This document shows, in pieces, positions 12,353 to 64,000 of a stretch of DNA of 64,000 bases. Positions within the stretch are counted from its first letter, which is position 1, and every line of letters begins with the position of its first letter. The notes below the pieces were generated by a model. That model ran no database searches and was not told where the DNA came from. It was given only the letters and a program-made list of their open reading frames with translations. Position numbers and translations under genes: made by a program. Source of the DNA: a virus (lineage: Duplodnaviria > Caudoviricetes). The stretch lies in the IMG/VR virus record IMGVR_UViG_3300046694_000619. One strand, 5' to 3'.

Positions 12353-12470
12353 GATGAACCTCGTACCTGGGGCTACGGCGGGTCGAAACAGACCAGACCT
12401 GCTCAGCTTGTAAGCTCAAATAATACTAAGTTTGTCGGCTATCCGATGAAGTAAACATCATAGTCGCTTC

Positions 12471-15620: not shown

Positions 15621-15635
15621 GGCGACTGCCTGACC

Positions 15636-17764: not shown

Positions 17765-18021
17765 TGATTGTACTCCACAACGACACACCGCCTGGAGACC
17801 AGGGTTTACGCGGACTGCCCAGAGGGGTGCCGCGACCGCTTCGCCGGCCCAACTGAAATGACTGACCATACGGGTATGAAGTCTGCTGGGTGCGGACGAC
17901 GTGCAATCGCGCCGCCACCAGGCGCGCCGCCCGTGGTGGTAAGCTCGAAAATCCAGCAAGGGTTCCGGCCAGCTGCCTGGAGCCCCGCATAAGGCCCCCG
18001 CCGGCCTGCGAGGAGAAGCAT

Positions 18022-19880: not shown

Positions 19881-19903
19881 CGAAGCCGTTCAGGAGAAGA
19901 GCG

Positions 19904-20617: not shown

Positions 20618-20618
20618 C

Positions 20619-22544
20619 GTGCCGACTTCTTTGAAATTGAAAATTGGTCATCGCGATGTCAGGGAAGCTGGAGTAATTCCCCAGACCATCCCTCCTCAAC
20701 TCGCCACCGCGGCCAAGCAGCCGCCCGCACAAGGCAACTGGTTCTATCAAATAAAATTCGACGGATTTAGGATGATGACCCGTATCGCGCGCGGGGACAT
20801 CAGACTCATCACGAAGGGCGGACACGACTGGGCGGACAGGATACCCAGGCTCCAGCAGGCACTTGCTCAGTTGCCCGTCGACGAGCTCTGGCTCGACGGA
20901 GAAGCCGTGGTGCTTAATGCAGCGGGCCGCCCGGACTTTGGTGCCCTGCAGAACGCATTCGACCGGCGCAGCACCTCAGACATCATCCTCTTCGTATTCG
21001 ACATCCTGTGGCTGAATGGCGTCGACCTGCGGCCGCTGCCGTTGCGCGAGCGCCGACGCAAACTCGAAGAGTTGCTTGGCCCCTACGAGGGTCCGTTGCT
21101 ACGCGTCGCCGAGGTGTTCCCACATGATGCGCACTCGTTGCTTGCTTCCGCCCGCCAGATGCAGCTCGAAGGCATCATGGCCAAGCGCGCCGACGCGCCA
21201 TACCGGTCGGGCCGCGGGACCGACTGGCTGAAATTGAAGTGCAATCTGCGACAGGAGTTCGTGATTGGCGGCTTCACGCGCCCGCGCGGCGCGAAAGCTG
21301 GCGTGCGCTCGCTCCTGCTCGGCGTGTATGAGCTGGATGGCTCCCTTCGCTACGCCGGCAGCGTGCAGCCTCATCTTTCACCTGCGAAGGCGGCGGCATT
21401 CTATGGCCAGGCGGTACAACTCGCCCAGCGCGCGCCGCCGTTTGCCCGGGAGCCGAAGCTGGAACGCGGTCGCGACTACTACTGGGTCCAGCCAGAGCTC
21501 GTCTGTGAGGTCTCCTTTCTCGAATGGACGCGCGGCGGAGAAATCCGGCACGCGAGTTTCCATGCGTTGCGCACCGATAAGCCCGCGCGCGAGGTCTCCG
21601 CTGAAATCGCGATTGACGTCGATGATGAGGCTCCCGTCGAGGCTACTCGAGGTGCACCTGTCGTACGCGGCATCCGCATCAGCAACCCGGAACGCATCGT
21701 CGACACAAGCGCAGGCCATACGAAGCTCGAGGTCGCACGCTATTACGACGCCATCGCGGAATGGGCACTGCCATATCTGCGCAACCGGCCGCTCTCGCTA
21801 GTGCGCGCGCCGGACGGCATCAGTGGCGAATTGTTCTTTCAGAAGCATGCCGAGCAGTCGAAGATTCCCGGCGTCGAGGAGCTGCCGGCGGGCCTGCATC
21901 CAGGCCACGCGCCACTGTTGGTCGCTAACAGCCAGCGCGCGCTTGTCGGCCTGGCCCAGATGGGCGTCGTCGAGCTGCACACGTGGAATGCCGCAGCTCC
22001 GGACCTTGTCCATCCGGACCGCGTCGTATTCGATTTGGACCCAGACCCCGCATTGTCGTGGCAGACCATGCTCGAGGCGGCGCAACTGCTCAAGCTGGTG
22101 CTCGACGAGCTCGGGCTCGCGTCGTTCGTGAAGACAAGCGGCGGCAAGGGGCTGCACATCATCGTGCCGCTCACGCAGAAGCAGGGGTGGGATGAGGTGA
22201 AGGCGTTTTCAAAGGCCGTCGCGCAGCATCTTGCGAAAGTACTGCCTACTCGCTTCTCTGCGGTCTCGGGACCAAAGAATCGCGTTGGCAAGATATTCGT
22301 CGACTACCTGCGCAATTCGAAGGGCGCTACGTCAGTTGCCGCGTTCTCAGTAAGAGCGCGACCAGGGATGGGCGTGTCAATGCCGGTGTCGTGGGATGAG
22401 GTTGCTTCGCTCAAAAGCGCCGACCAGTGGACCATGCAGTCCGCAGTCGAGCGTCAGCTGCGATTAGGCGGCGACGTCTGGACTGGGTACGCCGACGTGC
22501 GTCAGGGAATCACGGCGGCCATGCGACGCGCGCTAATCGCCTAG
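20619..22544 (+). CDS. ligD: NHEJ DNA ligase D (ligase and primase-polymerase domains, no phosphoesterase domain)
   Basis: KFDGFR, LDGE, EGIMAK, WLKLK; DRVVFDLDP, KTSGGKGLH, DYLRN. Confidence 0.93.
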   Translation: MPTSLKLKIGHRDVREAGVIPQTIPPQLATAAKQPPAQGNWFYQIKFDGFRMMTRIARGDIRLITKGGHDWADRIPRLQQALAQLPVDELWLDGEAVVLNAAGRPDFGALQNAFDRRSTSDIILFVFDILWLNGVDLRPLPLRERRRKLEELLGPYEGPLLRVAEVFPHDAHSLLASARQMQLEGIMAKRADAPYRSGRGTDWLKLKCNLRQEFVIGGFTRPRGAKAGVRSLLLGVYELDGSLRYAGSVQPHLSPAKAAAFYGQAVQLAQRAPPFAREPKLERGRDYYWVQPELVCEVSFLEWTRGGEIRHASFHALRTDKPAREVSAEIAIDVDDEAPVEATRGAPVVRGIRISNPERIVDTSAGHTKLEVARYYDAIAEWALPYLRNRPLSLVRAPDGISGELFFQKHAEQSKIPGVEELPAGLHPGHAPLLVANSQRALVGLAQMGVVELHTWNAAAPDLVHPDRVVFDLDPDPALSWQTMLEAAQLLKLVLDELGLASFVKTSGGKGLHIIVPLTQKQGWDEVKAFSKAVAQHLAKVLPTRFSAVSGPKNRVGKIFVDYLRNSKGATSVAAFSVRARPGMGVSMPVSWDEVASLKSADQWTMQSAVERQLRLGGDVWTGYADVRQGITAAMRRALIA

Positions 22545-40724: not shown

Positions 40725-43163
40725 TCAGATGTAGTCGGCGTCTCCGAAATCTACTGAGGCCGTCGACTCACCGGGTGAGGACTCGACGGCCTCTGGCCTG
40801 GGTGCCGCAGCTTCTGCATCCGGGACACGCTCGAGCGGCGCAACCGCGTCGCCGAGCGTTGCCTGGGTGGCGAGTGCAACCGCCTTGTCCGGCAGTGCCG
40901 CGCCAGCCCGCGCCCGTTTCCCGCGGTGCGCGTCGAGGTCCTTGCCGGTCAGCGTGACCTGTGTGTGCTTCTTTCGCGCCGAGGGCGTGGTCGACACCAC
41001 CAGCTCCGTCACCGGCCGTTCATAGGCCGCGACTGACTTCACCGTGTCCTTCCCGCTCAGACTGATGAGCTGCATGCCGCGGCCCTTGGCCATCTGTTTG
41101 AGCTCGACGAGCGGAAACAGCAGCACCTTGCCCGAACTCGCGCCCACGGCAATTTCTCCGCCATCGCGCAGTGCCCTCACGGCGGTCGGAGCCAGAATGG
41201 CTTCACCGTCTTCGAGTGTCATCACCGCCTTGCCGGCCTTCTTGCTCGTGACCAGCTCCGCGCCCGGGCAGAGGAAGCCATAACCGCCGCTGTTGGCCAG
41301 CAGGTAGTGCGTATCAGTGTCGAGCACGAACGCGTGCACAAGCTTGTTCGAGCCAATTTCGACGAATGAGGAGAGCGGCGAGCCGTCACCGCGGCCAGTC
41401 GGGAATACCGACGCCGCGACGTTGTAAGCGCGGCCCGTGTGGTCGAACATCACCACCGTCTGCGTGCTGCGCGTCTCAATTACCGCGAGCGCTTCGTCAC
41501 CCGCTTTCCAAGTGAGCGCGGACAGGTCGACCTTGTGACCGGTGCGCGCGCGCAGCCAGCCCAGTTTCGAGATAACGAGCGTGACCGGGTCATCACTGGT
41601 TGCCACCACCGACGAGGTGGTGATGCGCTCGGCCGACTCGATGAGGGTACGACGCGCGTCGCCATACTTCTTGCGGTCGTCGCCCAGTTCATTGAGCACC
41701 TGCTTCGTCATCGCGCCACGGTCATCGAGCAGGCCTTGCAGCACAGCCTCTTCCTTGCGTAGCTCGGCGAGTTCGCTCTCAATCTTGATGCGCTCGAGAT
41801 TGGCGAGCTGGCGCAGGCGGATTTCAAGAATGTCTGTCGCCTGAATATCGGACAGCCCGAACCGGCTCATGAGCTGTGCCTTGGCATCCGCTGAGTCACG
41901 GATAACGCGGATGACTTCGTCGATATGGAGGAACACCGTCAGGCGGCCCTCGAGGATGTGCATGCGTGCGCGAACCTGGTTCAACAGGAATTGCGTACGG
42001 CGCGTCACGGTCTCGAACCGGAAGGCGACCCATTCTTGGAGCACCTGAAGCAGCCCCTTCTGGCCCGGCGCGCCATCCGCGCCAATGGTCACCAGGTTCA
42101 TCGAGAAGTTCGATTCGAGGCTCGTGTGTGCGAGCAGAACCTGCATCACCTCATCCGGGCTCTGGCGTGAGCTACGCGGCTCTATGATGAGCCGGACCGG
42201 ATGCTGCGCATCGGAATCATCCGAAATCTTGTCGACCACCGACAGCACGAGCGCCTTCAGGTTTGCCTGGTCCTGCGTGAGGCTCTTCTTACCCGCCTTG
42301 AGTTGAGGGTTCGACAACTCTTCGATTTCGGCCATGACCTTCGCCGTGGACGTCCCCGGCGGCAGCTCGGTAATCGCAATCTGCCATTGCCCACGCGCCA
42401 GTGGCTCAACAGTCCAGCGCGCACGCGTGCGCAGCGACCCGCGACCGGTCGTGTAGGCCTTGGCCACTTCGTCCGCCGACGAGATGAGTTGCGCGCCGCC
42501 CGGGAAATCCGGACCCGGCATGATGGCCAGGATGTCTGCGAGCATAGCTTCCGGATGACGGATGAGGTACTCGCAAGCAAGCGCCACTTCAGTCAGGTTG
42601 TGGCTCGGAATTTCGGTGGCCATACCCACAGCGATACCCGATGCGCCGTTCAGAAGCAGCACGGGCAGGCGAGCAGGCAGCAAACCCGGTTCCTGGAGCG
42701 AGCCGTCATAGTTGGGTGCGAAATCCACCGTGCCCTTGTCGAGCTCGCCCAGCAACAGCTCGGCAATCGGCGTCAGGCGTGCTTCGGTATATCGCATTGC
42801 CGCTGGCGAATCGCCATCGCGAGAGCCAAAGTTTCCTTGGCCGTCGACGATGGGGTAGCGCAACGAGAAGTCCTGCGCCATCCGCACCGCGGCGTCATAC
42901 ACCGACGAGTCGCCGTGCGGGTGGTACTTACCGATGATGTCGCCGACGAAACGCGCACACTTCACAGGCTTGCTCTTGTCGTTCAGCCCCATGCGGTGCA
43001 TCGAATAGAGAATGCGCCGTTGCACGGGCTTCTGGCCGTCGCGGACATCCGGGAGCGCGCGGCCCAGCACCACGCTCATTGCATAGGCGAGGTACGCATT
43101 CTCCGCGTAGTCGCCGATGTCGACGGCGTTCGACGAGTCAGCGGGTTCAAGCACTTCAGACAT
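40725..43163 (-). CDS. parC: DNA topoisomerase IV subunit A
   Basis: [35 protein letters not shown]; no GyrA box seen. Confidence 0.95.
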
Positions 43164-43166
43164 GAT

Positions 43167-43556
43167 TCAGACTTCCTGTGCGGGTTGTTCTTTGGCGGCA
43201 GCTTCACGGCGCGCCGCCTTTGCGCGATTCACGGCTTCCTGCGCCGCTGCGCGGTCTTCTTTCATTGCTACAGCCAGCTCCAGCTCGGAAATGGGCGTGA
43301 AGCGCGAGGCCCACATCACGGCCGGCCGTGCCCACGGGATGTCAGCCGTTTCGAACGGCCAGACATGCTCGTACAGATACAGCAGGCTCTCGTCTTCGGT
43401 GTGCCGCGCCGGGCTGATGAAGCGGTAGATGCCCCCATCCGTGTGACGAACAAGCTGTCCCCGCTCGAGCGGCTTGAAGTACCGCGCCGTGACTGTCGGG
43501 GTAAAAATGAGTTCGCCGATAGCGGCACTCAGGTCGGTGTTATAGGGTGCGTCCAT
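43167..43556 (-). CDS. DUF1653-like protein
   Basis: VRH.DGGIY...ARHTED....LY......WARP. Confidence 0.7.
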   Translation of the reverse strand: MDAPYNTDLSAAIGELIFTPTVTARYFKPLERGQLVRHTDGGIYRFISPARHTEDESLLYLYEHVWPFETADIPWARPAVMWASRFTPISELELAVAMKEDRAAAQEAVNRAKAARREAAAKEQPAQEV

Positions 43557-43559
43557 GAA

Positions 43560-43946
43560 TCACTCATCGTTTGTGTCTTCGGTGTCGTCCGAGCCCAGCA
43601 GCTCCCCATCCTGACCGGTCACCATCTCGCCACCTTTGACGCTTTGCCACGGACGATGCGCGTGCAGGGAGCAACTCTTCACGCCGCAGTCGCGCACGCG
43701 GAATTTCGCGCCCGGGTCGGCATCCGCGCCCACGCACGTCCAGCAGAACGCCTTGATGGCCGCCTTCAGCGAATTCGGGTTCGCCTCCGCCTGCTCGACG
43801 GGATTGCGGTGCACTGGCTTCCAGCCGGCGGCCCGCAGCTCACGCATACGCTCCTGGCCCTTCGCAAGCTGGGCGCGCAGTTGGGCCTTGCGGTCTGAGG
43901 CTTCCGCCGACTCGTTGGTCGCAGGAATGTTGTTGATGTCAGTCAT
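43560..43946 (-). CDS. Hypothetical Zn-binding protein
   Basis: AIKAFCWTC...VRDC....CSLH..RP. Confidence 0.65.
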   Translation of the reverse strand: MTDINNIPATNESAEASDRKAQLRAQLAKGQERMRELRAAGWKPVHRNPVEQAEANPNSLKAAIKAFCWTCVGADADPGAKFRVRDCGVKSCSLHAHRPWQSVKGGEMVTGQDGELLGSDDTEDTNDE

Positions 43947-43957
43947 TTCTGTTTTGG

Positions 43958-44836
43958 TTACTCGCTGTTTTTGGTTTTCAGGTCCAACATGGACATCCCG
44001 GTGCCGGGAAGAGCGAACACAAGCTTGTGATACTCGTCTACGAACACCGTCTTGCGCTGTTCTTTAGCGCGGCGCGCGGCCTTTGCATTCGTGATGGCGG
44101 CTTGCGCCTCCGCTCGAGGCTGCTGCTGTGCTTCGCGCAGGTCGTTGTTCGTTATTGGCGTGAACCGGCTCGGCCACTCTTGCGCGGGGCGCGCCCACAC
44201 CTGACCGGTCGCAAACGGCCAGACGTGCTCGTAGATGACGAGCTCGCCTTGGTCTTCCGTGTGGTGCGCGGTGGAGTGGTAGCGATAGATGCCGCCATCC
44301 TGATGGCGCACCAGTTGCCCCGGCACCAACCTGGCTGTCTCAACGCGTGCAAATTTCTCGACGCGTTGCAGTCTCGTGCCCGCAGGCAGCTCACCAAGGT
44401 CGACATCACCCATCATCTGCATGACGCCACAGAATCCGGCGTTCAGTTCCGCACCTTGTTGCAGCCAATCCAGCAAGCCAGGCAAAGTCCGCGTCACATG
44501 CCACAGGTCGTCGACCAGCACAAAAGTCGTCGCTGAAATGGCGAACAGGTGGGGCAGTTTCTCGATGTCGACGGGCTGTTTAGGGTGGTCCAGTTCATAA
44601 ACGGTCAACGGCAGACTTCCGAAACGCTCGACAGCAATGGCCCGCGTATAGTCCACGGTTACAACCGTGCCACCGAGCGCGCGAGCGAGATGCCGGTATG
44701 AGCGGCTACCGTCGAAAACCAGCGCCGTGTTGCCGTCGGCCAGACTATTCATCAGCCGTTGCGCAGCGAAAAGATGCTTGCCAGAGCCCGAGGGGCCGAC
44801 AATGAGGAGGTTTTCTTGTGGGTTTGTGTAAAGCAT
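43958..44836 (-). CDS. Small P-loop NTPase (VirB4/HerA-like motifs) fused to a DUF1653-like domain
   Basis: IVGPSGSGK, VFDGSRSY, LVDD; C-terminal domain similar to 43167..43556. Confidence 0.65.
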   Translation of the reverse strand: MLYTNPQENLLIVGPSGSGKHLFAAQRLMNSLADGNTALVFDGSRSYRHLARALGGTVVTVDYTRAIAVERFGSLPLTVYELDHPKQPVDIEKLPHLFAISATTFVLVDDLWHVTRTLPGLLDWLQQGAELNAGFCGVMQMMGDVDLGELPAGTRLQRVEKFARVETARLVPGQLVRHQDGGIYRYHSTAHHTEDQGELVIYEHVWPFATGQVWARPAQEWPSRFTPITNNDLREAQQQPRAEAQAAITNAKAARRAKEQRKTVFVDEYHKLVFALPGTGMSMLDLKTKNSE

Positions 44837-44847
44837 GTCTGATTCCT

Positions 44848-45366
44848 TCAGTCAGGTATCCGGCTCGCGAGCTTTTCTTTTTTGCCGAAAATGGCACATC
44901 CCAGCAGACGCCAGTCGCGCTCGCGAAGAGCACGAAACAGCGCGGCGCCACGCAGCTGGTTGACTACCCACGGGTTGGGCTCCAGCACGTCGGTGCCGAC
45001 AAGCAGCAACGGGCGATTGAGCCAGGCAGCCAGGAAGAGGCCGACACCGACCGAGCGCGAGGCGCCAGCTTCGCAATGGACCATCAAAGGGGCGTCTTTA
45101 TGTTTCGCGCCGAATTCGAGCGCCGCTTTCGCGTGCTCGCGCGACATCACCGTGAAGTTGCCGCCAACCTGGTCCGTGTCATGGAAGCCCAGGCGCAAAA
45201 TGTCGGCGTAACCCTCGAGCGTCGGCTGCGACTGGCGCGGGTTCGTGATGGAAATGCAAACCTCGCCGGCGAGCGGTGTACGGTTGACGGCGGCGCGGCG
45301 CGGCAGTACCCGAACGAGACGTTGCTCTCGCTCAGGGGTGGAATCGTGTGAATCGTTAAATCGCAT
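44848..45366 (-). CDS. Protein-tyrosine/dual-specificity phosphatase-like protein
   Basis: VHCEAGASRS (HCx5R) loop. Confidence 0.8.
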   Translation of the reverse strand: MRFNDSHDSTPEREQRLVRVLPRRAAVNRTPLAGEVCISITNPRQSQPTLEGYADILRLGFHDTDQVGGNFTVMSREHAKAALEFGAKHKDAPLMVHCEAGASRSVGVGLFLAAWLNRPLLLVGTDVLEPNPWVVNQLRGAALFRALRERDWRLLGCAIFGKKEKLASRIPD

Positions 45367-45413
45367 CTTCGTTTCGCAAACAAACGGCTCACGAGGAGCC
45401 GTTTTGAGGTGAA

Positions 45414-45953
45414 TCAGGTACGCGGATGGCCAAACTTGGCCGCTTCAGTTTCAATCCAGTTGCGGGCTTCCTCGACCGTCTCGACATACCGGAATCCAGC
45501 CGTACGCCCCGTTTCCTTTGCGACAACAACGCAATGGATGGTGCCGGGCTCAACGGTCTGGCGGTCGTCGTGGCGATAGTCTGGGCCGTAGTCCAGGTAG
45601 TGCCCGGCACACAGCGTCTTGCCGTGCCGTGTACTGCTGCGCGGCCAGTACCAGCCACGCGCCGTGGAAGCACCTTTGGGCTCGTCCCAAATCTTGTTCG
45701 TCTCATAGACCGACGAACGCGTCGCCGACGTCAACAGGTCCTGCTTTTCGCGTTCGGCCTTCATGACCGGATGCGACGTTGTCGCCACAAGGTACGTGTC
45801 GAGCGTTCCAACCTGGTTGGGGTTGCGAATGGACACAACATTGTTCGGATACAGTTCGTTGTCGATGAGCCAGTCCAGCTCGGCATCCGACATCACGGCT
45901 GCGCTTCCTGCGATAACTTCGGCAATCTTGCTGCGGGCGATATTCGTGTTCAT
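45414..45953 (-). CDS. Hypothetical protein
   Basis: GGAG RBS, ATG at 45953; hairpin at 45383-45404 follows. Confidence 0.6.
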   Translation of the reverse strand: MNTNIARSKIAEVIAGSAAVMSDAELDWLIDNELYPNNVVSIRNPNQVGTLDTYLVATTSHPVMKAEREKQDLLTSATRSSVYETNKIWDEPKGASTARGWYWPRSSTRHGKTLCAGHYLDYGPDYRHDDRQTVEPGTIHCVVVAKETGRTAGFRYVETVEEARNWIETEAAKFGHPRT

Positions 45954-46000
45954 GGTTTCCACTCCGTGGTTAGTTGGCCTGTATCCGTATAGGAAAGGCA

Positions 46001-47971
46001 TCACACGTCGAGGTCCGCTTCCTTGCCGCGCACTTCCAGCCAGGAGCGCCGCGCGCTCGCTTCGCCCTTGCCCATCAGCAGCGTGAAAATGCGATTTACG
46101 TCCTTCATCTCGCCGACCGTGACCGGCAACAGCAAACGCGTATCCGGACTGAGCACGGTGTCTTTCAGCTGGTCGGGGTTCATTTCGCCCAGACCCTTGA
46201 AGCGCGACACTGTCAGCTGCTCGAGCCGGAAGCCATCGCGCTGAAGCTGTGCCACGTTGTCATCGCGCTCCTGCTCGGTCAGGCAGTAAATTTTCTGTGC
46301 CGGACGGCCCTTGCCCTTCGACGGCGCATCGACACGGAAGAGCGGCGGCTTGGCGATGAACACATGCCCGCGCGTCACGAGCTGCGGGAAGTGGCGGTAA
46401 AAGAGCGTGAGCAGTAGCGTCTGGATGTGCGAGCCGTCAACGTCAGCGTCCGAGAGGATGATGACCTTCCCGTAACGCAGGTTGTCCAGCACGCTCGCCG
46501 GCGCTTCGACGTCATGCGGGTCGATACCGAGCGCGACGGAAATGTCGTGCACTTCGTTGTTCTCGAACAGGCGGTCGCGCTCGGTCTCCCACGTGTTGAG
46601 CACCTTCCCGCGCAGCGGCAGGATGGCCTGATACACCCGGTCGCGAGCCACCTTGCAGCCGCCGCCGGCCGAGTCGCCTTCCACGAGGAACAGTTCGTTG
46701 CGCGTGATGTCAGTCAGCTGACAATCGGTAAGCTTTCCGGGCAGGGTTGCCACGCCGGAGCTCTTGCGCTTCTCGACGACCTTGCCGCTACGCAAGCGCG
46801 CAGTCGCCTGCTTGATGACGAGTTCGGCAATCTTCTTACCCGAATCCGGATTGGCCAAAAGCCACTGCATGAAGGGGTCTTTCACGACGGAAGACACGAC
46901 GCGCACAACTTCGCGGCTCGTGAGCTTGTCCTTTGTCTGACCCTGGAACTGGGTGTTGACGATGTGGGCCGACAGCACGAAGTGCGCGCGGCTCCAGACA
47001 TCTTCAGCCTGCAGTGTGATGCCGCGGGGAAGCAGGGCGTGATGCTCGCAGTAGTCACGCATCGCCTCAAAGAGCCCCGTGCGCATGCCCGCTTCGTGGG
47101 TGCCGCCAAGCGGAGTAGGGATAAGGTTCACGTACGACTCGCCCTTGCCCGCTTCCGTGGTCCAGGCCACGGCCCACGCGGCACCATCGCCCGCGACCAC
47201 GTCTTCGCCGTCGGCTACCTTCAGGTGGCCTTCGCCCTTGAAAATATCGCCGACCTGCTCGAGGCCTTCCATGCGCTCTTTCAGATACGCTTTCAGCCCT
47301 TCCTGATAGCACCAAGTCTGTTCTGCGCCCGTGACCTCATTGACGTAGGAGACCGTGATGCCCGGCAGCAACATCGCCTTCGCGCGCAGCAGGTGTTCCA
47401 GCTTCGCGAGCGGGAGATTCCCGGTGTCGAAGTGCTTTGCGTCGGGCCAGAAGCGAACCTTCGTGCCGGACGTGCGAGGTCCGCACTCGCCGATTTGCTC
47501 GACAGGCGAAATCTCGCGGTCGCCTTCGACGAAGCTCACCTTGTAGACCTTTCCTTCGCGCTTCACCTCGACTTCGAGCTTGTGCGAAAGGGCGTTCGTC
47601 ACCGAGACGCCGACACCATGAAGGCCACCCGAGCGAGCGTAGCTATTGCCCTTGCGGAACTTCGCGCCTGCGTGCAGCTTGGTGAATGCGAGGACCACCG
47701 CCGGGATGCCCAGCTTGGGGTGCAATCCCACCGGGATACCCCGGCCGTTATCGGCCACAGAAATGGACCCATCCTTATGCACCGTCAGGGACACCTTGGA
47801 GGCATGGCCGTTCTGGGCCTCATCGACGGCGTTGTCGAGCACCTCCTGGGTGATGTGCAGAGGTGATTCCGTGCGGGTGTACATCCCCGGCAGCTTGCGC
47901 ACGGGGTCCAGCCCTTCGAGAACGTCGATGTCGGATGCGTCGTAGACCTTCTGGTCTTCAGTCGTTGCCAT
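46001..47971 (-). CDS. parE: DNA topoisomerase IV subunit B
   Basis: LEGLDPVRK.PGMY, EVLDNAVDE, LVEGDSAGG, PLRGKVLN, DADVDG, RFKGLGEM. Confidence 0.95.
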   Translation of the reverse strand: MATTEDQKVYDASDIDVLEGLDPVRKLPGMYTRTESPLHITQEVLDNAVDEAQNGHASKVSLTVHKDGSISVADNGRGIPVGLHPKLGIPAVVLAFTKLHAGAKFRKGNSYARSGGLHGVGVSVTNALSHKLEVEVKREGKVYKVSFVEGDREISPVEQIGECGPRTSGTKVRFWPDAKHFDTGNLPLAKLEHLLRAKAMLLPGITVSYVNEVTGAEQTWCYQEGLKAYLKERMEGLEQVGDIFKGEGHLKVADGEDVVAGDGAAWAVAWTTEAGKGESYVNLIPTPLGGTHEAGMRTGLFEAMRDYCEHHALLPRGITLQAEDVWSRAHFVLSAHIVNTQFQGQTKDKLTSREVVRVVSSVVKDPFMQWLLANPDSGKKIAELVIKQATARLRSGKVVEKRKSSGVATLPGKLTDCQLTDITRNELFLVEGDSAGGGCKVARDRVYQAILPLRGKVLNTWETERDRLFENNEVHDISVALGIDPHDVEAPASVLDNLRYGKVIILSDADVDGSHIQTLLLTLFYRHFPQLVTRGHVFIAKPPLFRVDAPSKGKGRPAQKIYCLTEQERDDNVAQLQRDGFRLEQLTVSRFKGLGEMNPDQLKDTVLSPDTRLLLPVTVGEMKDVNRIFTLLMGKGEASARRSWLEVRGKEADLDV

Positions 47972-48056
47972 AAAACCTTGCTCGGCTATTCGTTGATGAT
48001 GATGACCATGGGGTATAGCGAGATTGAGAGGGGCCGCACCACAGGCGCCCCGCCAA

Positions 48057-48545
48057 TCAATCTGACAACCGCACCAGGTCAGCGACATTGACCATGCGCA
48101 GCGTCAAGCGCCGGGCAGGGTAGAAAATCTGTTTGGTTTGCACGGCATCGTCGACCAGCACGACCTCCGTGTCGTCGAACTCAGGGCTCATCTCGATGAA
48201 GTGCTGAAATCCGAAGTCCTTGCCATGAAACAGCATGCATTCGTTGTCGCTCTCGAAAACCGTGCCCCGGCTCAGGCAGAGATGAAAAAGCTTCTCTGTC
48301 GTGAAGGTGTCCGCCAGGTCGAGCGTCACGCCGAGCGCCCGGTTGAGCCTTGCCTCAAAGAATTCGCGAAACAGTGCGACCCGGTGCTCATCCCATAGCG
48401 CAAAGGAAAAGAGCCGTACCGCCTCCGGCGCTTCGTCTTCGATAAAACCCCGGACAGGCTCCACGTTCACAAGCCGTGCGAGCGCCGCGGCATCGAATTC
48501 GTCGATGACCGTGTCTTCCAGGTCCAGGAACACGACTTTCTTCAT
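48057..48545 (-). CDS. HAD-superfamily protein
   Basis: VFLDLEDT, LVDD. Confidence 0.65.
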   Translation of the reverse strand: MKKVVFLDLEDTVIDEFDAAALARLVNVEPVRGFIEDEAPEAVRLFSFALWDEHRVALFREFFEARLNRALGVTLDLADTFTTEKLFHLCLSRGTVFESDNECMLFHGKDFGFQHFIEMSPEFDDTEVVLVDDAVQTKQIFYPARRLTLRMVNVADLVRLSD

Positions 48546-59528: not shown

Positions 59529-59556
59529 TTGACATGCAGGTTGGTGGTGCTATACT
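59529..59556 (+). promoter_or_regulatory. Sigma70 promoter of the tRNA array
   Basis: TTGACA, 16-nt spacer, TATACT with TGn extended -10; AT-rich upstream. Confidence 0.85.
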
Positions 59557-59632: not shown

Positions 59633-59809
59633 ATGACACGCAGCCTCCGCCCAATCAACGCCGCCTCCACGCTTAATGCGTGGAATGGCGTTGTGCGCGT
59701 CGGATTCTCGCCGTCGAAAGATTGCGGTTTTAGCGCACTGAGCCTGGGCTTGGGTTATCAACCCGAGCATATTCAGGAACAGGTGCATTCCGGGAGGAAG
59801 GGCAGATAA
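59633..59809 (+). CDS. Putative attenuator leader peptide (58 aa)
   Basis: MTRSLRPINAASTLNAWNGVVRVGFSPSKDCGFSALSLGLGYQPEHIQEQVHSGRKGR*; lies between promoter and terminator; modest GGA RBS. Confidence 0.6.
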   Translation: MTRSLRPINAASTLNAWNGVVRVGFSPSKDCGFSALSLGLGYQPEHIQEQVHSGRKGR

Positions 59810-59837: not shown

Positions 59838-59878
59838 GAACCCCCGGAATGCGCAAGCACCCGGGGGTTTTTGTTTTT
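59838..59878 (+). terminator. Intrinsic terminator (attenuator) upstream of the tRNA array
   Basis: aacccccgg-aatgcgcaagcac-ccgggggtt followed by tttgttttt. Confidence 0.88.
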
Positions 59879-59890
59879 AACCACCAAACA

Positions 59891-60075
59891 ACGTGCCAAA
59901 CGGAACGAGACCGTGGCCAGCACGATACCGGCAAAGCCGGATGGCAAATGGGCGGGGTCCCGGATTGAAACTGCGGAGGAAACGCAGGAGTAAAATGGGC
60001 ATGCGGAGGGACGACCTCCGCACTTTTTCAAGGGTCTTGTCGACTTGTTAACCCGAGTAGGGTCCTTGAAAAAGC
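59891..60075 (+). ncRNA. Candidate structured RNA between the attenuator and the first tRNA
   Basis: Several nested hairpins, no convincing ORF. Confidence 0.5.
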
Positions 60076-60126: not shown

Positions 60127-60202
60127 GCCGGTTTAGCTCAGATGGAAGAGCTACTGTTTTGTAAACAGAGGGTCACGGGTTCGAATCCTGTAGCCGGCAC
60201 CA
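60127..60202 (+). tRNA. tRNA-Thr(UGU)
   Basis: Cloverleaf, loop TTTGTAA, CCA. Confidence 0.9.
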
Positions 60203-60213
60203 CCCATCACGCT

Positions 60214-60290
60214 CGGGGCATAGCGCAGTCTGGTAGCGCGTCTGCATGGGGTGCAGAAGGCCGCAGGTTCGAATCCTGCTGTCCCGACCA
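60214..60290 (+). tRNA. tRNA-Pro(GGG)
   Basis: Loop ATGGGGT, CCA. Confidence 0.92.
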
Positions 60291-60300
60291 ACGGTTCAAT

Positions 60301-60376
60301 GCGGGTGTAGCTCAGATGGTAGAGCAGAAGCCTTCCAAGCTTAGTGTCGCGAGTTCGATTCTCGTCGCCCGCTCCA
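60301..60376 (+). tRNA. tRNA-Gly(UCC)
   Basis: Loop CTTCCAA, U73, CCA. Confidence 0.92.
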
Positions 60377-60507
60377 GTTCCTTGTTGTCGCAGTCATGCG
60401 TTAAATGGCGTCTGCCGGTTGTCCTCTCTCCGGCGCGGTCACTGCGATAAGTGACGTGCTGGCAGGCAAGCTGCAAGCCGTGCTGACGGGAATCAGCGCG
60501 CAACGCT

Positions 60508-60591
60508 GCCCAGGTGGTGAAATGGAAGACACGCTGGTTTCAGAAGCCAGTGGCGAAAGCTGTGAGGGTTCGAGTCCCTCCCTGGGCACCA
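60508..60591 (+). tRNA. tRNA-Leu(CAG)
   Basis: Loop TTCAGAA, variable arm, CCA. Confidence 0.9.
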
Positions 60592-60644
60592 TTAGTACAA
60601 CTTACATGTAGTAGGTCGCAATCACTGCATGTTTTCGCTTCAAC

Positions 60645-60730
60645 GGGGATGTGGCTGAGTGGCCGAAGGCGGCGGACTGTAAATCCGTTCTGTAAAAAGC
60701 GCGATGGTTCGAATCCATCCGTCCCCACCA
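60645..60730 (+). tRNA. tRNA-Tyr(GUA)
   Basis: Loop CTGTAAA, variable arm, CCA. Confidence 0.9.
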
Positions 60731-60745
60731 CGATTTTTTTGCAAT

Positions 60746-60822
60746 GCCTAGGTAGCTCAGCATGGTAGAGCGCCGTCTTGATAAGGCGAGGGTCGCTGGT
60801 TCAAATCCAGCTCTAGGTACCA
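60746..60822 (+). tRNA. tRNA-Ile(GAU)
   Basis: Loop TTGATAA, CCA. Confidence 0.9.
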
Positions 60823-60832
60823 GTTTCACAAT

Positions 60833-60909
60833 TGGCCAGTAGCTCAGTTCGGTAGAGCGCTCCGCTGTTAACGGAAGGGTCACGGGTTCGAAGCCTGTCT
60901 GGCCAGCCA
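60833..60909 (+). tRNA. tRNA-Asn(GUU)
   Basis: Loop CTGTTAA, G73, CCA. Confidence 0.9.
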
Positions 60910-60918
60910 ATTTACGAT

Positions 60919-61004
60919 GCACGTGTGGCCGAGCGGTTGAAGGCACTGGGCTGCAAACCCAGCGATGAAACTCCACGCCAGTTCGAATCTGGCCACGTGC
61001 TCCA
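60919..61004 (+). tRNA. tRNA-Cys(GCA) with long variable region
   Basis: Loop CTGCAAA, U73, CCA, 86 nt. Confidence 0.85.
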
Positions 61005-61031
61005 GTCGCTGTTGCTAGTTGTACGAATAAT

Positions 61032-61117
61032 GCACGCGTAGCCAAGAGGTCGAAGGCACAGGTCCGCAAAACCTACGACGCAAGTCCACGTCAGTTCGAA
61101 TCTGACCGCGTGCTCCA
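61032..61117 (+). tRNA. tRNA-Cys(GCA) with C33 and long variable arm
   Basis: Loop CCGCAAA, U73, CCA, 86 nt. Confidence 0.8.
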
Positions 61118-61140
61118 GTAGTTCCTGAAGTTTGCTTTGC

Positions 61141-61214
61141 TCCGGTGTAGCTCAGTTCGGTAGAGCGCCTGGCTGTTAACCAGGATGTCGGTGGTTCGAA
61201 CCCACTCTCCGGAG
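61141..61214 (+). tRNA. tRNA-Asn(GUU), no encoded CCA
   Basis: Loop CTGTTAA; followed by CAA. Confidence 0.85.
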
Positions 61215-61231
61215 CAAAGCAAAGTTTCAAT

Positions 61232-61308
61232 GCTCGGATAGCTCAGTTTGGTAGAGCGCCGGCCCGATAAGCCGTAGGTCGCTGGTTCAAATCCAGCTCC
61301 GAGTACCA
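61232..61308 (+). tRNA. tRNA-Ile(GAU) with C33
   Basis: Loop CCGATAA, CCA. Confidence 0.82.
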
Positions 61309-61316
61309 AGTTTTCT

Positions 61317-61392
61317 GCGGGAATAGCTCAGTTGGTAGAGCGCAACCTTGCCAAGGTTGAGGTCGCGAGTTCGAGACTCGTTTCCCGCTCCA
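61317..61392 (+). tRNA. tRNA-Gly(GCC)
   Basis: Canonical sequence, loop TTGCCAA. Confidence 0.95.
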
Positions 61393-61403
61393 GGTTTGCC
61401 CTT

Positions 61404-61480
61404 GCAGGGGTAGCTCAGTTGGCTAGAGCATCTGCTTGCCATGCAGAAGGTCGCGAGTTCGAGTCTCGTTCCCTGCTCCA
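61404..61480 (+). tRNA. tRNA-Gly(GCC), second variant
   Basis: Loop TTGCCAT, CCA. Confidence 0.9.
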
Positions 61481-61488
61481 GTTTCATC

Positions 61489-61586
61489 GCCGAGATAGTC
61501 CGGTCGGTGCCGGTACGAATCCATAAGAGTTGTCGCTTGGTGACCCAGGCGCAGCCCACGCAGTTCGACTCTGCGTCTCGGCTCCA
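61489..61586 (+). tRNA. Atypical tRNA-like RNA (anticodon undetermined)
   Basis: Perfect acceptor stem, T-arm and CCA; weak anticodon arm; ~11-bp extra arm. Confidence 0.65.
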
Positions 61587-61595
61587 GCTTCATTT

Positions 61596-61672
61596 GCGGT
61601 AGTAGCTCAGCTGGTTAGAGCGCCGGCCTGTCGAGCCGGGGGTCACGGGTTCGAGTCCCGTCTGCCGCGCCA
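61596..61672 (+). tRNA. tRNA-Asp(GUC) with G37
   Basis: Loop CTGTCGA, G73, CCA. Confidence 0.9.
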
Positions 61673-61684
61673 GTTTCACCCGAT

Positions 61685-61760
61685 GTTCCGTTGGACTTTT
61701 GGTAAGGTCAGCAGGCTTTCAACCTGCGCAAGCTCGGTTCGAATCCGGCACGGAACTCCA
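61685..61760 (+). tRNA. tRNA-Glu(UUC)
   Basis: Loop CTTTCAA, CCA. Confidence 0.82.
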
Positions 61761-61769
61761 GATTACATT

Positions 61770-61845
61770 GCTCCGTTAACTCAGCGGCCAGAGTGCGTCC
61801 CTGTCCAGGACGAAGCCGAGGGTTCGACTCCCTCACGGGGCGCCA
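61770..61845 (+). tRNA. tRNA-Asp(GUC) with C37
   Basis: Loop CTGTCCA, G73, CCA. Confidence 0.85.
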
Positions 61846-61855
61846 GTTTCACAGC

Positions 61856-61931
61856 AGGGGGTAAATCGATTGGAGCAGATACTTGGCTTTGACCCAAGGT
61901 GAGTCGGGTTCGATTCCCACACCCCCTTCCA
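61856..61931 (+). tRNA. tRNA-Gln(UUG), divergent
   Basis: Loop CTTTGAC, CCA. Confidence 0.75.
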
Positions 61932-61943
61932 AAAAATCACAAC

Positions 61944-62019
61944 GTGCGCTTCGTCTAGTGGCCCAGGACCCCGTCTAACAAGGCGGGAGACACAGGTTCG
62001 AATCCTGTAGCGCGCTCCA
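61944..62019 (+). tRNA. tRNA with Glu-type body and 6-nt anticodon loop (TAACAA; AAC/Val?)
   Basis: D-arm TCGTCTAGTGGCCCAGGAC; stem CCGTC/GGCGG; CCA. Confidence 0.7.
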
Positions 62020-62039
62020 GTAACAACAAAGCACATTGC

Positions 62040-62112
62040 ATGACTGTGGCGCAATTGGCAGCGCAGCGGTCTCCAAAACCGAAGGTTGAGAGTTCGACCC
62101 TCTCCAGTCATG
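62040..62112 (+). tRNA. tRNA-Trp(CCA), no encoded CCA end
   Basis: Loop CTCCAAA; followed by CAA. Confidence 0.85.
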
Positions 62113-62131
62113 CAATGTGTTTTCCCCCTGT

Positions 62132-62208
62132 CTGGGCGTAATGTCAGTTGGTAGACGGCCGGCTTTGGAAGCCGGAGGCCGCAGGTTCGAGTCCTGTCGC
62201 CCAGACCA
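62132..62208 (+). tRNA. tRNA-Pro(UGG) with A37
   Basis: Loop TTTGGAA, CCA. Confidence 0.85.
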
Positions 62209-62220
62209 AATTTTTTCAAC

Positions 62221-62297
62221 ACTCGGGTCGTCTAGCTGGCCTAGGACACCGCCCTTTCAAGGCGGGCACGCGGGTTCGAATCCCGTCCCGAGTACCA
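62221..62297 (+). tRNA. tRNA-Glu(UUC)
   Basis: Loop CTTTCAA, CCA. Confidence 0.9.
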
Positions 62298-62313
62298 AAT
62301 TTCGAGGACAGTC

Positions 62314-62859
62314 ATGTTGACGTGCGTGAATTATAGGCCCGGCTTCGTGGCCAATCCGAATCCGATTTTCGATGCGCTGTGGTCCGAGCTGGACTGGGAG
62401 CGCAGAGGCTCGACGCCCAGGCGTGAGTATTACTGCAACGACGTCGGCGTGCCGTATGTCTATGGCCGCGGCGCCGGCGTACGGGAATACCTGCCCAAGG
62501 CCATGCATCCCGCCCTGGCTGCCCTGAAAGGCGAGACGGAAGCCGCACTGAGCACCAAGTTCGAAGTGGCCTTTCTGAACGGCTACGAGGACGCCCGCGA
62601 CAGCTTGGGCTGGCACGCGGATGACAGCGAGTCGATGGATGACAATCGTCCCATCGCCATCCTGACGCTGGGCGCGGAACGCGAAATCTGGTTCTGCCGC
62701 AACACCGACCGCTCCGACATCACGAAGCTGGTGCTGGGCAACGGCAGCCTGTGCGTCATGGCGCCGGGCATGCAAGATACCCACCTGCACAGAATCCCCA
62801 AGGCGGGGTTCGAGTGCGGCCCGCGTATCAGTATTACATTCAGGGGTTACGTAGCGTAG
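62314..62859 (+). CDS. AlkB-family 2OG-Fe(II) dioxygenase (ALKBH2/3-like)
   Basis: LNGY...DSLGWHADD (HxD), H.IPK, RISITFR; GAGGA RBS. Confidence 0.9.
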   Translation: MLTCVNYRPGFVANPNPIFDALWSELDWERRGSTPRREYYCNDVGVPYVYGRGAGVREYLPKAMHPALAALKGETEAALSTKFEVAFLNGYEDARDSLGWHADDSESMDDNRPIAILTLGAEREIWFCRNTDRSDITKLVLGNGSLCVMAPGMQDTHLHRIPKAGFECGPRISITFRGYVA

Positions 62860-62980
62860 TCCTGAAGGGGTTGCTTCATGCTGCCCTGGCGCCAGGTGTA
62901 GACCATCTGGCGCCGTCTCTACAAGTTGTCGTAGTGCCTATTGCATGGTATATTAAACTCCCCATCATAAGGAGTTTCCC

Positions 62981-63169
62981 ATGAATTACTCGACGGCTCT
63001 GTCGTTTGCTGTTCCGGTCTTGATGCTCATTGCAACCGTGAATCTGGTTGCGTACTGGGCTCGTAACGCAAAGAAGGTAGCTGACGCCCGGCTGCGTGCG
63101 CATTACGATGCGCACCCCGATAAGGCTGAAGCTCGTGCGCTGATGCGCGCAGCAGGCTACAACGTCTGA
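62981..63169 (+). CDS. Small membrane protein
   Basis: TAAGGAG RBS, one TM helix. Confidence 0.6.
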   Translation: MNYSTALSFAVPVLMLIATVNLVAYWARNAKKVADARLRAHYDAHPDKAEARALMRAAGYNV

Positions 63170-63227
63170 GCGTAACGCCGGCGTTGTGCTCCGTCCCAGG
63201 TCGGCCAACACCTGGAAAGAACACCTT

Positions 63228-63303
63228 GGGGGTGTAACTCAGTCGGTAGAGTGCCTGACTCTTAATCAGGAAGTCGCGAGTTCGAGCCTCGCCGCCCCCA
63301 CCA
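63228..63303 (+). tRNA. tRNA-Lys(CUU)
   Basis: Loop CTCTTAA, CCA. Confidence 0.92.
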
Positions 63304-63311
63304 CGATTACT

Positions 63312-63402
63312 GGAGAGCAAACCTGGCAGGGCTGGGCGCCGATTCGAAATCGGTTGGAGTGGCGAAAGCTGCTTGGGCTTCGAGTGCACCTGCTCTCCGC
63401 CA
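63312..63402 (+). tRNA. tRNA-Ser(CGA) with 8/4 fold (allo-tRNA-like)
   Basis: 8-bp acceptor GGAGAGCA/TGCTCTCC, short T-stem, long variable arm, G73, loop TTCGAAA. Confidence 0.78.
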
Positions 63403-63408
63403 GACAAT

Positions 63409-63486
63409 AGGACCGTAGCTCAGTTGGACCAGAGCGCCGCGCTACGAACGCGGAGGTCGGGGATTCGAATTCCTCCGGTCCTACCA
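63409..63486 (+). tRNA. tRNA-Arg(ACG)
   Basis: Loop CTACGAA, CCA. Confidence 0.9.
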
Positions 63487-63497
63487 TTTCATTTCTT

Positions 63498-63573
63498 GCC
63501 TCGGTAGCTCAGCTGGTAGAGCACTGCACTGAAGATGCAGGTGTCGCTGGTTCGATTCCAGCTCGAGGCACCA
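63498..63573 (+). tRNA. tRNA-Phe(GAA) with G37
   Basis: Loop CTGAAGA, CCA. Confidence 0.9.
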
Positions 63574-63584
63574 CCTTCCGGAGC

Positions 63585-63917
63585 TTGTCTATGGTCGCGT
63601 ATCCCGTGAACTACACAGACGAGCAGCTTGGAAAAGCCTACGCGGCCGGGATGCTGCGAAAGACCAAGCTTGAGGATGGCCGCTATTACAGAGGCGAATG
63701 TCGAAACGCGAGCGTCGCGCGCTGGTGCGCCGAACTGCAAGCATTCGTGCACTGGACCTTCACGATGGGCGGCTGGCATCTGGACCTCATCCATCATCCC
63801 GACGACGAGAAACGGTATGACGTGTTTCTCGCGTTCGAACGCGTTGAACCTTCCGCAGACGACGTCATCGCTGACGCCGAATACGAAGGGTTCGTCGCGA
63901 TGTATCGCAAACAATGA
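63585..63917 (+). CDS. Hypothetical protein inside the tRNA array
   Basis: 110-aa ORF filling the inter-tRNA gap; YY.G.CRNA..ARW. Confidence 0.6.
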   Translation: MSMVAYPVNYTDEQLGKAYAAGMLRKTKLEDGRYYRGECRNASVARWCAELQAFVHWTFTMGGWHLDLIHHPDDEKRYDVFLAFERVEPSADDVIADAEYEGFVAMYRKQ

Positions 63918-63928
63918 GACTGCAGCGG

Positions 63929-64000
63929 GGTGGCCGTCGCCAAGTGGTTAAGGCCCGCGGCTGTGACCCGCGCATGCATGGGTTCAAATCCCATCGGTCA
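63929..64000 (+). tRNA. tRNA-His(GUG), truncated by the window end
   Basis: Loop CTGTGAC, G-1. Confidence 0.85.

Follow-up and report, generated by a model that had tools for sequence, protein, structure and literature searches.

A 64,000-nucleotide stretch of DNA from the IMG/VR virus record IMGVR_UViG_3300046694_000619 (this whole stretch is called the window here) ends in a dense array of transfer RNA (tRNA) genes, which starts at position 60127 and runs past the window end. The array genes are under purifying selection, many of their anticodon loops differ from the host form, the loop variants recur and converge among arrays, and a conserved leader precedes the genes. We propose, with a probability of roughly 0.5, that the array is a conditionally expressed back-up tRNA pool whose anticodon arms have been selected to differ from those of the host, probably to escape tRNA-cleaving nucleases (tRNases). 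We infer from the sequence that transcription of the array is controlled, and that its products would be aminoacylated, used by ribosomes and resistant to some nuclease.

Extent of the array

Between positions 60127 and 64000, ARAGORN identified 26 tRNA genes, all on the + strand, and 23 of these were matched by Rfam family RF00005 at the gathering score, with E-values from 1e-5 to 1e-14. A 27th gene, a tRNA-Ser(CGA) with an 8-bp acceptor stem, was missed by ARAGORN and read from the sequence, which brings the total to the 27 or more co-oriented tRNA or tRNA-like genes claimed in a preliminary description of this DNA. The sequence L007, which is 99.7% identical to the window and extends 10 kb beyond its end, contains 41 ARAGORN tRNA genes at 3991-12502, a region of about 8.5 kb. 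Whole-array counts were taken from L007; the 3.9 kb in the window are the opening part of an array that numbers 41 genes or more. When L007 was searched with Rfam by E-value under a laxer filter, a Glu-like gene (61685) and a Gln-like gene (61856) scored 43.9 and 38.2 bits, respectively. A tRNA array unit is defined as a region of 20 or more tRNA genes in which there are 2 or more per kb (Tran et al. 2016, PMC4758250); the window contains 27 genes in 3.87 kb (7.0 per kb) and L007 contains 41 in 8.5 kb (4.8 per kb). The anticodon set is near-complete and includes readers for both GC-ending and AU-ending codons, and the CCA end is encoded in nearly all genes, the exceptions in the window being one tRNA-Asn (61141) and the tRNA-Trp (62040). 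The same region was present at 99.3-100% identity in contigs of at least six JGI samples (rhizosphere metagenomes) and in several Logan assemblies, and the array is therefore no assembly artefact.

Anticodon loops depart from the host form

Loops are given as positions 32-38. The relatives compared were the metagenome loci L058-L065 (AlkB 96% to 68% identical), plasmid pPM1 of Methylibium petroleiphilum PM1, contig C7 of Piscinibacter sp. MQ-18, Variovorax sp. SRS16 and two Pseudomonas megaplasmids, and the "host" loops are those of proxy genomes, namely Piscinibacter sp. MQ-18 and 30 other Burkholderiales. Of the 41 array genes, 14 have a deviant nucleotide 33, a deviant nucleotide 37 or a loop of unusual length, compared with none of the 42 chromosomal tRNAs of Piscinibacter sp. 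MQ-18 (Fisher p = 1.3e-5).

Every loop deviation listed in the preliminary description was reproduced in our loop table. Ile(GAU) is present as a U33 copy (60746-60822, UUGAUAA) and a C33 copy (61232-61308, CCGAUAA), as is Cys(GCA), with loops CUGCAAA (60919-61004) and CCGCAAA (61032-61117) in genes of 86 nt each. Asp(GUC) occurs with G37/A38 (61596-61672, CUGUCGA) and with C37/A38 (61770-61845, CUGUCCA), Pro(UGG) has A37 (62132-62208, UUUGGAA), Phe(GAA) has G37 (63498-63573, CUGAAGA), and Gly(GCC) comes with the host-type A38 (61317-61392, UUGCCAA) or with U38 (61404-61480, UUGCCAU). Further deviations were A37 in Leu(CAG) (60508-60591, UUCAGAA), where the chromosomal gene has G37; an 8-nt anticodon loop, CUAACAAG, on a Glu-type tRNA body found by ARAGORN (61944-62019); C33 in a 98-nt class-II tRNA-like gene (61489-61586, CCAUAAG); and a long variable arm in both Cys genes. 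The idea that canonical and variant copies are paired held in part, for Ile, Cys, Gly(GCC) and Pro(CGG), but not for Asp and Phe, of which both copies are variant.

The strongest departure was seen in tRNA-Asp. Chromosomal Asp genes carried the loop CUGUCAC in all 37 genes from the 30 Burkholderiales genomes, and a full-length chromosomal copy at least 91% identical was present in 59 of the 61 genomes sampled. Among 18 unique array genes, by contrast, 16 combined a base other than A at position 37 with A38 (CUGUCCA in 6, CUGUCGA in 5, CUGUCUA in 4 and AUGUCGA in 1), one had CAGUCAG, and a single gene retained the canonical CUGUCAC (non-canonical in 17/18 array versus 0/37 chromosomal genes, Fisher p = 2.6e-13). 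The variant loops were distributed over at least five tRNA bodies with only 61-75% mutual identity. The G37 gene of the window, with a body 79% identical to chromosomal Asp, has the same loop in L058, L059 and L061, while the orthologs of the C37 gene in pPM1 and MQ-18 C7 are 82-88% identical and keep CUGUCCA although all three stems have been rebuilt by compensatory changes. That three different bases replace A37 suggests that the host state is selected against, not that a particular new one is favoured.

Other isoacceptors were remodelled to different degrees. The unique array genes were non-canonical in 14 of 17 cases for Glu(UUC), including the window gene at 62221-62297 (CUUUCAA, with A38 where the chromosome has C38). 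Phe had G37 in 6 of 13, shared with L058, pPM1, the plasmid of Pseudomonas sp. FeN3W and viral contig L090; Pro(GGG) had C33 in 4 of 10, the window gene (60214-60290, AUGGGGU) being identical in its loop to the chromosomal gene; and Leu(CAG) had A37 in 3 of 6, with A37 in L059, pPM1 and MQ-18 C7 as well as in the window. At the other end, Arg(ACG) was canonical in all 13 genes (63409-63486 in the window, CUACGAA), Trp in all 14 and Asn in 14 of 16, and Pro(UGG) retained G37 in 13 of 14. The U38 Gly(GCC) gene is 100% identical in L058 and L059, and U38 is also found in L061, L062 and Variovorax. The Ile loop CCGAUAA occurs twice more, on a different tRNA body, in the FeN3W plasmid. The Asp combination of non-A37 with A38, Phe G37, Leu(CAG) A37, Gly U38 and Ile C33 are thus inherited or independently recurrent. 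In the nearest relative, L059, the second Ile gene has U33, a second Cys gene is absent (as it is in a soil-metagenome relative) and Pro(UGG) has G37, so that Ile C33, the C33 Cys copy and Pro(UGG) A37 of the window are recent changes.

One proposal of the preliminary description, that the variants are substitutes independent of modification, did not prove systematic: A37 following U36, the N6-threonylcarbamoyladenosine (t6A) class, was kept in 99 of 100 unique array genes.

Similar loops were found in tRNA clusters of IMG/VR viral contigs, which had been retrieved with a D-arm pattern aimed at the Asp C37 clade; the pattern was unspecific, matching several isoacceptors, and the contigs were kept as a sample of viral clusters. 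C33 was present in 14 of their 154 genes and Asp was non-canonical in 4 of 5, and these contigs also contained Pro and Leu genes with A37 (Pro(UGG) A37 reappears in L084 and L094) and Phe, His and Gln genes with G37. Three of them, L085, L092 and L094, have 24-33 tRNA genes in which C33 loops are frequent, together with Asp CUGUCUA or CUGUCGA, Pro A37 and His or Gln G37, indicating that the remodelling is not peculiar to this plasmid family.

The array genes are maintained by selection

Anticodon-stem pairing was as complete in the arrays (94.6%) as on the chromosome (95.2%), with anticodon stems differing between arrays at about 49% of sites. Across 180 ortholog pairs, double compensatory changes greatly outnumbered breaks in the anticodon stems (247 versus 32), the acceptor stems (232 versus 28) and the T stems (150 versus 3). 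Between the window and its close relatives, divergence was 24% in anticodon stems, 19% (18.8%) in spacers, 15% in other stems (p = 6e-5) and 10.6% in loop flanks. None of the 15 substitutions in strain variant L013 fell within a tRNA, although tRNAs occupy about half of the stretch (probability under an even spread about 7e-5), and all four strain variants together had a single substitution inside a tRNA. Unconstrained decay across related replicons, which the preliminary description had named as the outcome that would overturn its reading, was thus not seen: stems are compensated, loop flanks are less diverged than spacers, and polymorphisms lie outside the tRNAs. Pairing, compensation, the polymorphism pattern and the A37 of the t6A class together indicate that the genes, including the odd ones, are under purifying selection as in translating tRNAs.

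A conserved leader precedes the array

All signals and genes described for the leader and the array lie on the + strand. A sigma-70-like promoter for leader and array is located at 59529-59556 (TTGACA, a 16-nt spacer and TATACT, 11 of 12 matches with an extended TG) and is kept in L059. It is followed by a 58-codon leader open reading frame (ORF; 59633-59809) that matched no Pfam family; L059 and L061 retain its C-terminal half and its frame, which a 3-nt deletion there leaves intact. Next come an intrinsic terminator hairpin with a U-run (59838-59878; -26.5 kcal/mol, z = -5.05), whose stem is invariant in the same two relatives, and a structured leader RNA (59886-60032; -57.1 kcal/mol, z = -4.0) with a second terminator-like hairpin at its end (60002-60022). 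The leader as a whole, promoter included, is conserved in L059 and L061, its RNA part more so than the ORF. L061 also has an apparent second, partial copy of the ORF upstream.

The co-oriented, tightly spaced array genes stand behind this one strong promoter, with a further promoter-like site at 62926. Promoter, leader ORF and two terminators suggest that the array is probably kept off until it is needed and then transcribed by read-through. As read from the sequence, 15 nt close to the 3' end of the leader ORF are able to pair with the 5' arm of the terminator, so that stalling-dependent read-through is a plausible prediction; the leader may follow the logic of an attenuator.

AlkB and irregular array members

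A gene for an AlkB-type 2-oxoglutarate (2OG)-Fe(II) oxygenase lies inside the array (62314-62859; PF13532, E = 9e-16), with HxD, H and RxSxTFR motifs legible in its sequence. The protein is 71% identical to that of pPM1 and 58.6% identical to a Variovorax plasmid protein, and its gene is syntenic with arrays in L058-L065 (68-96% identical) and pPM1; the gene was also noted at 20001-20549 of L001. AlkB could act on tRNA, for example by removing methyl groups.

The Cys(GCA) genes combine U73 and a long variable arm with a 7/5 fold at a length of 84-87 nt, a form found in four arrays (including the window; L023, 2240-2326; L057, 9142-9225), whereas the tRNA-Cys of the chromosome belongs to class I and measures 74 nt. 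The array genes share identity elements with selC*-type tRNA-Cys but lack its 8/4 fold. The U33 copy is 99% identical to its L059 ortholog, and the C33 copy has one broken anticodon-stem pair. The 98-nt gene, which scored below the Rfam gathering threshold, has a weak anticodon stem, but four relatives show no change in its central "anticodon" region, GAAUCCAUAAGAG, and its variable arm changes by compensation (L058, L059 and L061). The body of the gene with the 8-nt loop is near-identical to Glu(UUC) genes with loop CUUUCCG in L058 (1101-1174) and L059 (5531-5606), the entire anticodon arm having been replaced; it is the most extreme example of the rapid change in this arm.

The two genes without an encoded CCA, Asn(GUU) at 61141-61215 and Trp(CCA) at 62040-62113, each lie within an extended hairpin whose pairing is perfect over about 18-19 bp (61127-61229, fold z = -4.5, and 62024-62128, fold z = -5.8, respectively), and in L059 the Asn and Trp genes in the corresponding positions are equally short (74 nt). 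These hairpins may be processing or insulation signals. Allo-tRNAs of the (8/4) tRNA-Ser type carry a Ser anticodon and combine a long variable arm with acceptor and T stems of 8 and 4 bp, respectively (Mukai et al. 2017, PMC5389517). In the Ser(CGA) gene (63312-63402; loop UUCGAAA, G73-CCA), the one array member compared with this type, the 8-bp acceptor and long variable arm are legible by eye; its T stem is irregular, and the minimum-free-energy fold (z = -1.5) shows no cloverleaf.

Remaining genes of the array

The array opens with Thr(UGU) (60127-60202, loop UUUGUAA), found by both ARAGORN and Rfam, and also contains Gly(UCC) (60301-60376, CUUCCAA) and, with canonical loops, Tyr(GUA) (60645-60730), a CCA-encoding Asn(GUU) (60833-60909) and Lys(CUU) (63228-63303). 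A 47-bp deletion in strain variant L012 (window positions 63232-63278) takes out most of this tRNA-Lys. Two genes with U73 were found by ARAGORN and were not among the matches of the Rfam gathering search of the window: a Glu(UUC)-like gene (61685-61760, CUUUCAA) and a Gln(UUG)-like gene with weak D and T arms (61856-61931). The last tRNA gene, His(GUG) (63930-64000, CUGUGAC), is truncated by the window end and is complete in L007 (7793-7868). In addition to alkB, the array is interspersed with a 62-codon ORF (62981-63169), which has its own promoter-like site (62926-62954) and was called as a gene on all related contigs, and a 108-codon ORF (63591-63917), whose product is identical on nine contigs and had no Pfam or PADLOC match.

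The carrier element and its host

The carrier is probably a megaplasmid-like element, large and conjugative, whose host would be an uncultured betaproteobacterium of the rhizosphere, probably from the order Burkholderiales. Genes upstream in the window encode a TrwB-type coupling protein of a type IV secretion system (T4SS), ParC/ParE-like topoisomerase subunits (40725-48088), TerC, TerD and vWA proteins, several proteins with immunoglobulin (Ig) domains, an ImuB-DnaE2 mutasome module (12471-17099) and a Ku-LigD end-joining pair (17890-22544), a set that looks like typical megaplasmid cargo. The coupling protein and its counterpart on the Variovorax tRNA megaplasmids share 54% identity, and the GC content of the plasmid is 60%. 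No replication gene, relaxase gene or replicon ends were seen in the window, and the carrier may instead be a chromosomal integrative and conjugative element.

The Gly(GCC) gene at 61317 is 100% identical to a chromosomal gene of Piscinibacter sp. MQ-18, which points to a host in the Burkholderiales; genes of Ralstonia and Neisseria match it at 97.6-98.8%. The orthologs at the corresponding positions of L058 and L059 share only 88% identity with it, suggesting recent replacement by a host chromosomal copy.

When plasmid and phage collections were searched for near-identical DNA, the array and 25 kb of flanking sequence matched only single conserved tRNAs and a gyrB-like piece, and the replicon itself was absent from these collections. 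A search of genome contigs with AlkB found only Piscinibacter sp. MQ-18, whose array copies that of pPM1. Beside this pPM1-like array, MQ-18 has a second, different array of 35 tRNAs on contig C7 (L057, 7083-13639), including 87-nt Asn and Lys genes and a 97-nt Arg(UCU) gene, all with long variable arms. Contigs from four other soil or rhizosphere runs contain relatives that are about 90% identical and rearranged, one of them without the second Cys gene; these are a lead rather than evidence. On the Variovorax sp. SRS16 plasmid, a short gene annotated as glutamate--tRNA ligase family and a peptidyl-tRNA hydrolase gene adjoin a Glu/Arg/Asp tRNA cluster (L002, 8800-9591 and 12394-12843), with NAD-salvage, NADAR, macro and NUDIX genes nearby. 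The short ligase-family gene may be GluQRS-like; GluQRS is an enzyme that modifies tRNA-Asp.

Discussion

We consider it about as probable as not that the array is a spare tRNA set expressed under particular conditions and shaped to be unlike that of the host. Its genes would be functional tRNAs maintained by selection, with anticodon stems that turn over rapidly by compensatory change as the arms are selected away from the host form, and with the loop positions that flank the anticodon held in non-host states, in Asp above all and then in Glu, Phe, Pro(GGG), Leu(CAG) and His. Such a pool would escape enzymes that read host anticodon stem-loops, candidates being defence tRNases triggered by incoming DNA, tRNases of toxin-antitoxin systems, and colicin-like or contact-dependent growth inhibition (CDI)-type toxins deployed in rhizosphere competition. 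Selection for non-host loops would predict variants that recur and are inherited, and the observed pattern matches a hypothesis published for phages (PMC10264068).

Several points weigh against this interpretation. Pfam and PADLOC scans of 40 proteins from the window and downstream L007 revealed no tRNase, toxin or known defence gene beside the array; the same scans gave a weak CARF-like match in a DUF2726 protein and a CARF_2OG match for AlkB. To our knowledge, no tRNase is specific for the 37/38 side of tRNA-Asp. C38 is an identity element for aspartyl-tRNA synthetase in E. coli, and A38 might reduce charging of the array Asp. The comparison with host loops rests on proxy genomes rather than on the element's own host, and counts over ortholog pairs and related arrays lack phylogenetic independence. 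Four changes specific to the lineage of the window (Ile C33, the C33 copy of Cys, A37 in Pro(UGG) and the 8-nt loop) could be slightly deleterious novelties. Finally, position 37 varies most in the 2-methyladenosine (m2A)-type class, for which its modification matters least, and never in the t6A class, for which it is essential, and differing tolerance of the two classes predicts the same.

The alternative that survives best, possible though in our judgement doubtful, is a tRNA operon that would support gene expression of the plasmid, or survival of translational stress, in many hosts and would have nothing to do with nucleases, and in which the loop differences are tolerated drift later held by ordinary purifying selection in each lineage. 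It accommodates the near-complete anticodon set, as in the Variovorax arrays that cover all amino acids (PMC7313664), and the behaviour of the Anabaena trn operon, which is repressed and then activated by translational stress (PMC10272220). The confinement of position 37 variability to genes outside the t6A class, the youth and lineage specificity of several variants, and a plasmid GC content of 60%, probably below that of the host, fit it as well. Drift, however, leaves unexplained why the canonical Asp loop is retained in only 1 of 18 array genes, with three bases at position 37 on unrelated bodies, as against 37 of 37 chromosomal genes; why anticodon stems evolve faster than spacers; and why the same changes recur in viral contigs.

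We think it unlikely that altered decoding or non-translational roles, with some members acting as suppressors, regulatory RNAs, processing signals or decoys, account for the array. The candidates would be the class-II Cys(GCA), the 8/4 Ser set, the 98-nt gene, the tRNA with the 8-nt loop and the CCA-less tRNAs in long hairpins, and irregular tRNAs in polycistrons have indeed been proposed as suppressors or regulatory RNAs (PMC5389517). An invariant centre next to a weak anticodon stem in the 98-nt gene, an 8-nt loop within an otherwise conserved body, and the high stability of the hairpins around the CCA-less Asn and Trp would suit such roles. But most of the deviant genes (Asp, Phe, Ile, Pro and Leu) are ordinary 7/5 cloverleaves with standard anticodons, the expected discriminator and an encoded CCA, so that altered roles would explain a few members and not the array-wide pattern.

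That the array is a selfish, duplicating cluster of decaying pseudo-tRNAs without function is very improbable and largely refuted by the constraint data: three genes below the Rfam gathering score in the window search, two without CCA, the broken pair in the C33 Cys copy, the tRNA-Lys(CUU) deletion in one strain and the turnover of gene content between relatives would suit decay, but compensatory changes dominate every stem, strain polymorphisms avoid even the odd tRNAs, loop flanks diverge less than spacers, A37 follows U36 in 99 of 100 genes, and the Asp C37 orthologs keep their loop at 82-88% body identity.

Returning to a back-up pool that evades tRNases, a bolder version can be formulated, which we regard as speculative and rather improbable as a whole. 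Leader and array would form a self-triggering counter-measure, in which loss of host tRNAs stalls the leader ORF, termination is relieved and a tRNase-proof set is switched on. The Asp rule of "anything but A37, plus A38" and the Glu changes would then mark a widespread, undescribed anticodon-loop nuclease or modifying toxin directed against tRNA-Asp and tRNA-Glu in soil Proteobacteria and their phages, and AlkB might service the array tRNAs.

Plasmid tRNA arrays have been known for years without an agreed function, and experimental tests of the idea that mobile-element tRNAs are nuclease-proof spares have been limited to a few phage tRNAs. The comparative signal reported here indicates that selection, not decay, shapes the anticodon arms. 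It has three parts, namely convergent, isoacceptor-specific remodelling in which Asp is almost never in the host state, stems that evolve faster than spacers, and an intact A37 in the t6A class. The question becomes a specific one, whether an enzyme reads A37/C38 of tRNA-Asp and whether the plasmid copy escapes it, and cultured carriers exist in Methylibium PM1 and the Variovorax strains. If the interpretation is correct, anti-defence tRNAs would extend from phages to conjugative plasmids, and the arrays would point to unknown tRNases in rhizosphere competition.

Comparison with known systems

Both plasmid tRNA array units, including those of pPM1 and Variovorax, and loop-mutated phage tRNAs have already been published. 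In the papers that we consulted, we found no description of convergent remodelling of Asp 37/38, of fast compensatory turnover of anticodon stems or of an intact t6A class.

Loop mutations in phage tRNAs lie at the sites where tRNases cut (van den Berg et al. 2023, PMC10264068), and T5 tRNA-Lys and tRNA-Tyr rescue the phage from PARIS (PMC11464382) and from the retron Eco7 tRNase (PMC11555353), respectively. Like the array genes, the loop-mutated phage tRNAs are mobile-element duplicates of host isoacceptors with a changed anticodon loop, for which a role as a nuclease-proof pool has been proposed. They differ in that the carrier here is conjugative and plasmid-like, and resistance has been demonstrated experimentally for just a few phage tRNAs. 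Among bacterial toxins, CdiA-CT EC536 recognises the D and anticodon stems of tRNA-Ile(GAU), which it cleaves between nucleotides 32 and 33 (PMC11724271), the tRNAs for Asp, His, Asn and Tyr are cleaved by colicin E5 (PMC1635277), and an EndoU CdiA-CT prefers tRNA-Glu(UUC) (PMC9086364); published tRNase cuts offer precedents at positions 32/33 and 34/35.

Mycobacterial array units, known from plasmids and phages (Morgado and Vicente 2018, PMC5966550) and called putative anti-defence units on the linear plasmids of M. avium (Yano et al. 2026, PMC12803027), likewise form a near-complete second set when plasmid-borne, and it is chiefly in the D, anticodon and variable arms that this set departs from the tRNAs of the chromosome. 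They are actinobacterial and have an unrelated linear backbone that is a hybrid of type VII secretion system (T7SS) and T4SS components, and neither AlkB nor an analysis of convergence has been reported for them. The megaplasmid trn operon of Anabaena sp. PCC 7120 contains 26 genes, is repressed by TrcR in standard culture and is induced by translational stress (PMC10272220). As a plasmid tRNA operon with irregular members, it provides a model for conditional expression. It relies on a transcriptional repressor, whereas the window has a leader ORF and terminators and no TrcR-like gene was identified in it, and the lineages are unrelated.

The closest systems are betaproteobacterial. The array of pPM1 (NC_008826; PMC4758250), to which that of MQ-18 is identical, also resides on a conjugative megaplasmid and shares with the window element 27 co-oriented tRNAs, an AlkB gene inside the array, an 88% identical Asp C37 ortholog, Phe with CUGAAGA, Leu(CAG) with A37 and tRNA-Cys with a long variable arm. 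We found no published analysis of its anticodon loops. It differs in gene order and content, its DNA similarity to the window being limited to single tRNAs, and in having single copies rather than canonical and variant pairs, with C33 in Pro(GGG) and Leu(GAG) and not in Ile and Cys. The Variovorax megaplasmids pPBL-H6-1, pSRS16-1 and pWDL1-1 from linuron degraders (Ozturk et al. 2020, PMC7313664) are large, with about 62% GC, and carry arrays that cover all amino acids, which the original paper treats solely in terms of codon supply. They share Asp CUGUCCA and Gly(GCC) U38 with the window, but AlkB is encoded outside the main array and loop deviations are fewer (about 4 of 47 genes). The window array belongs to the same loose family as these pPM1 and Variovorax megaplasmid arrays.

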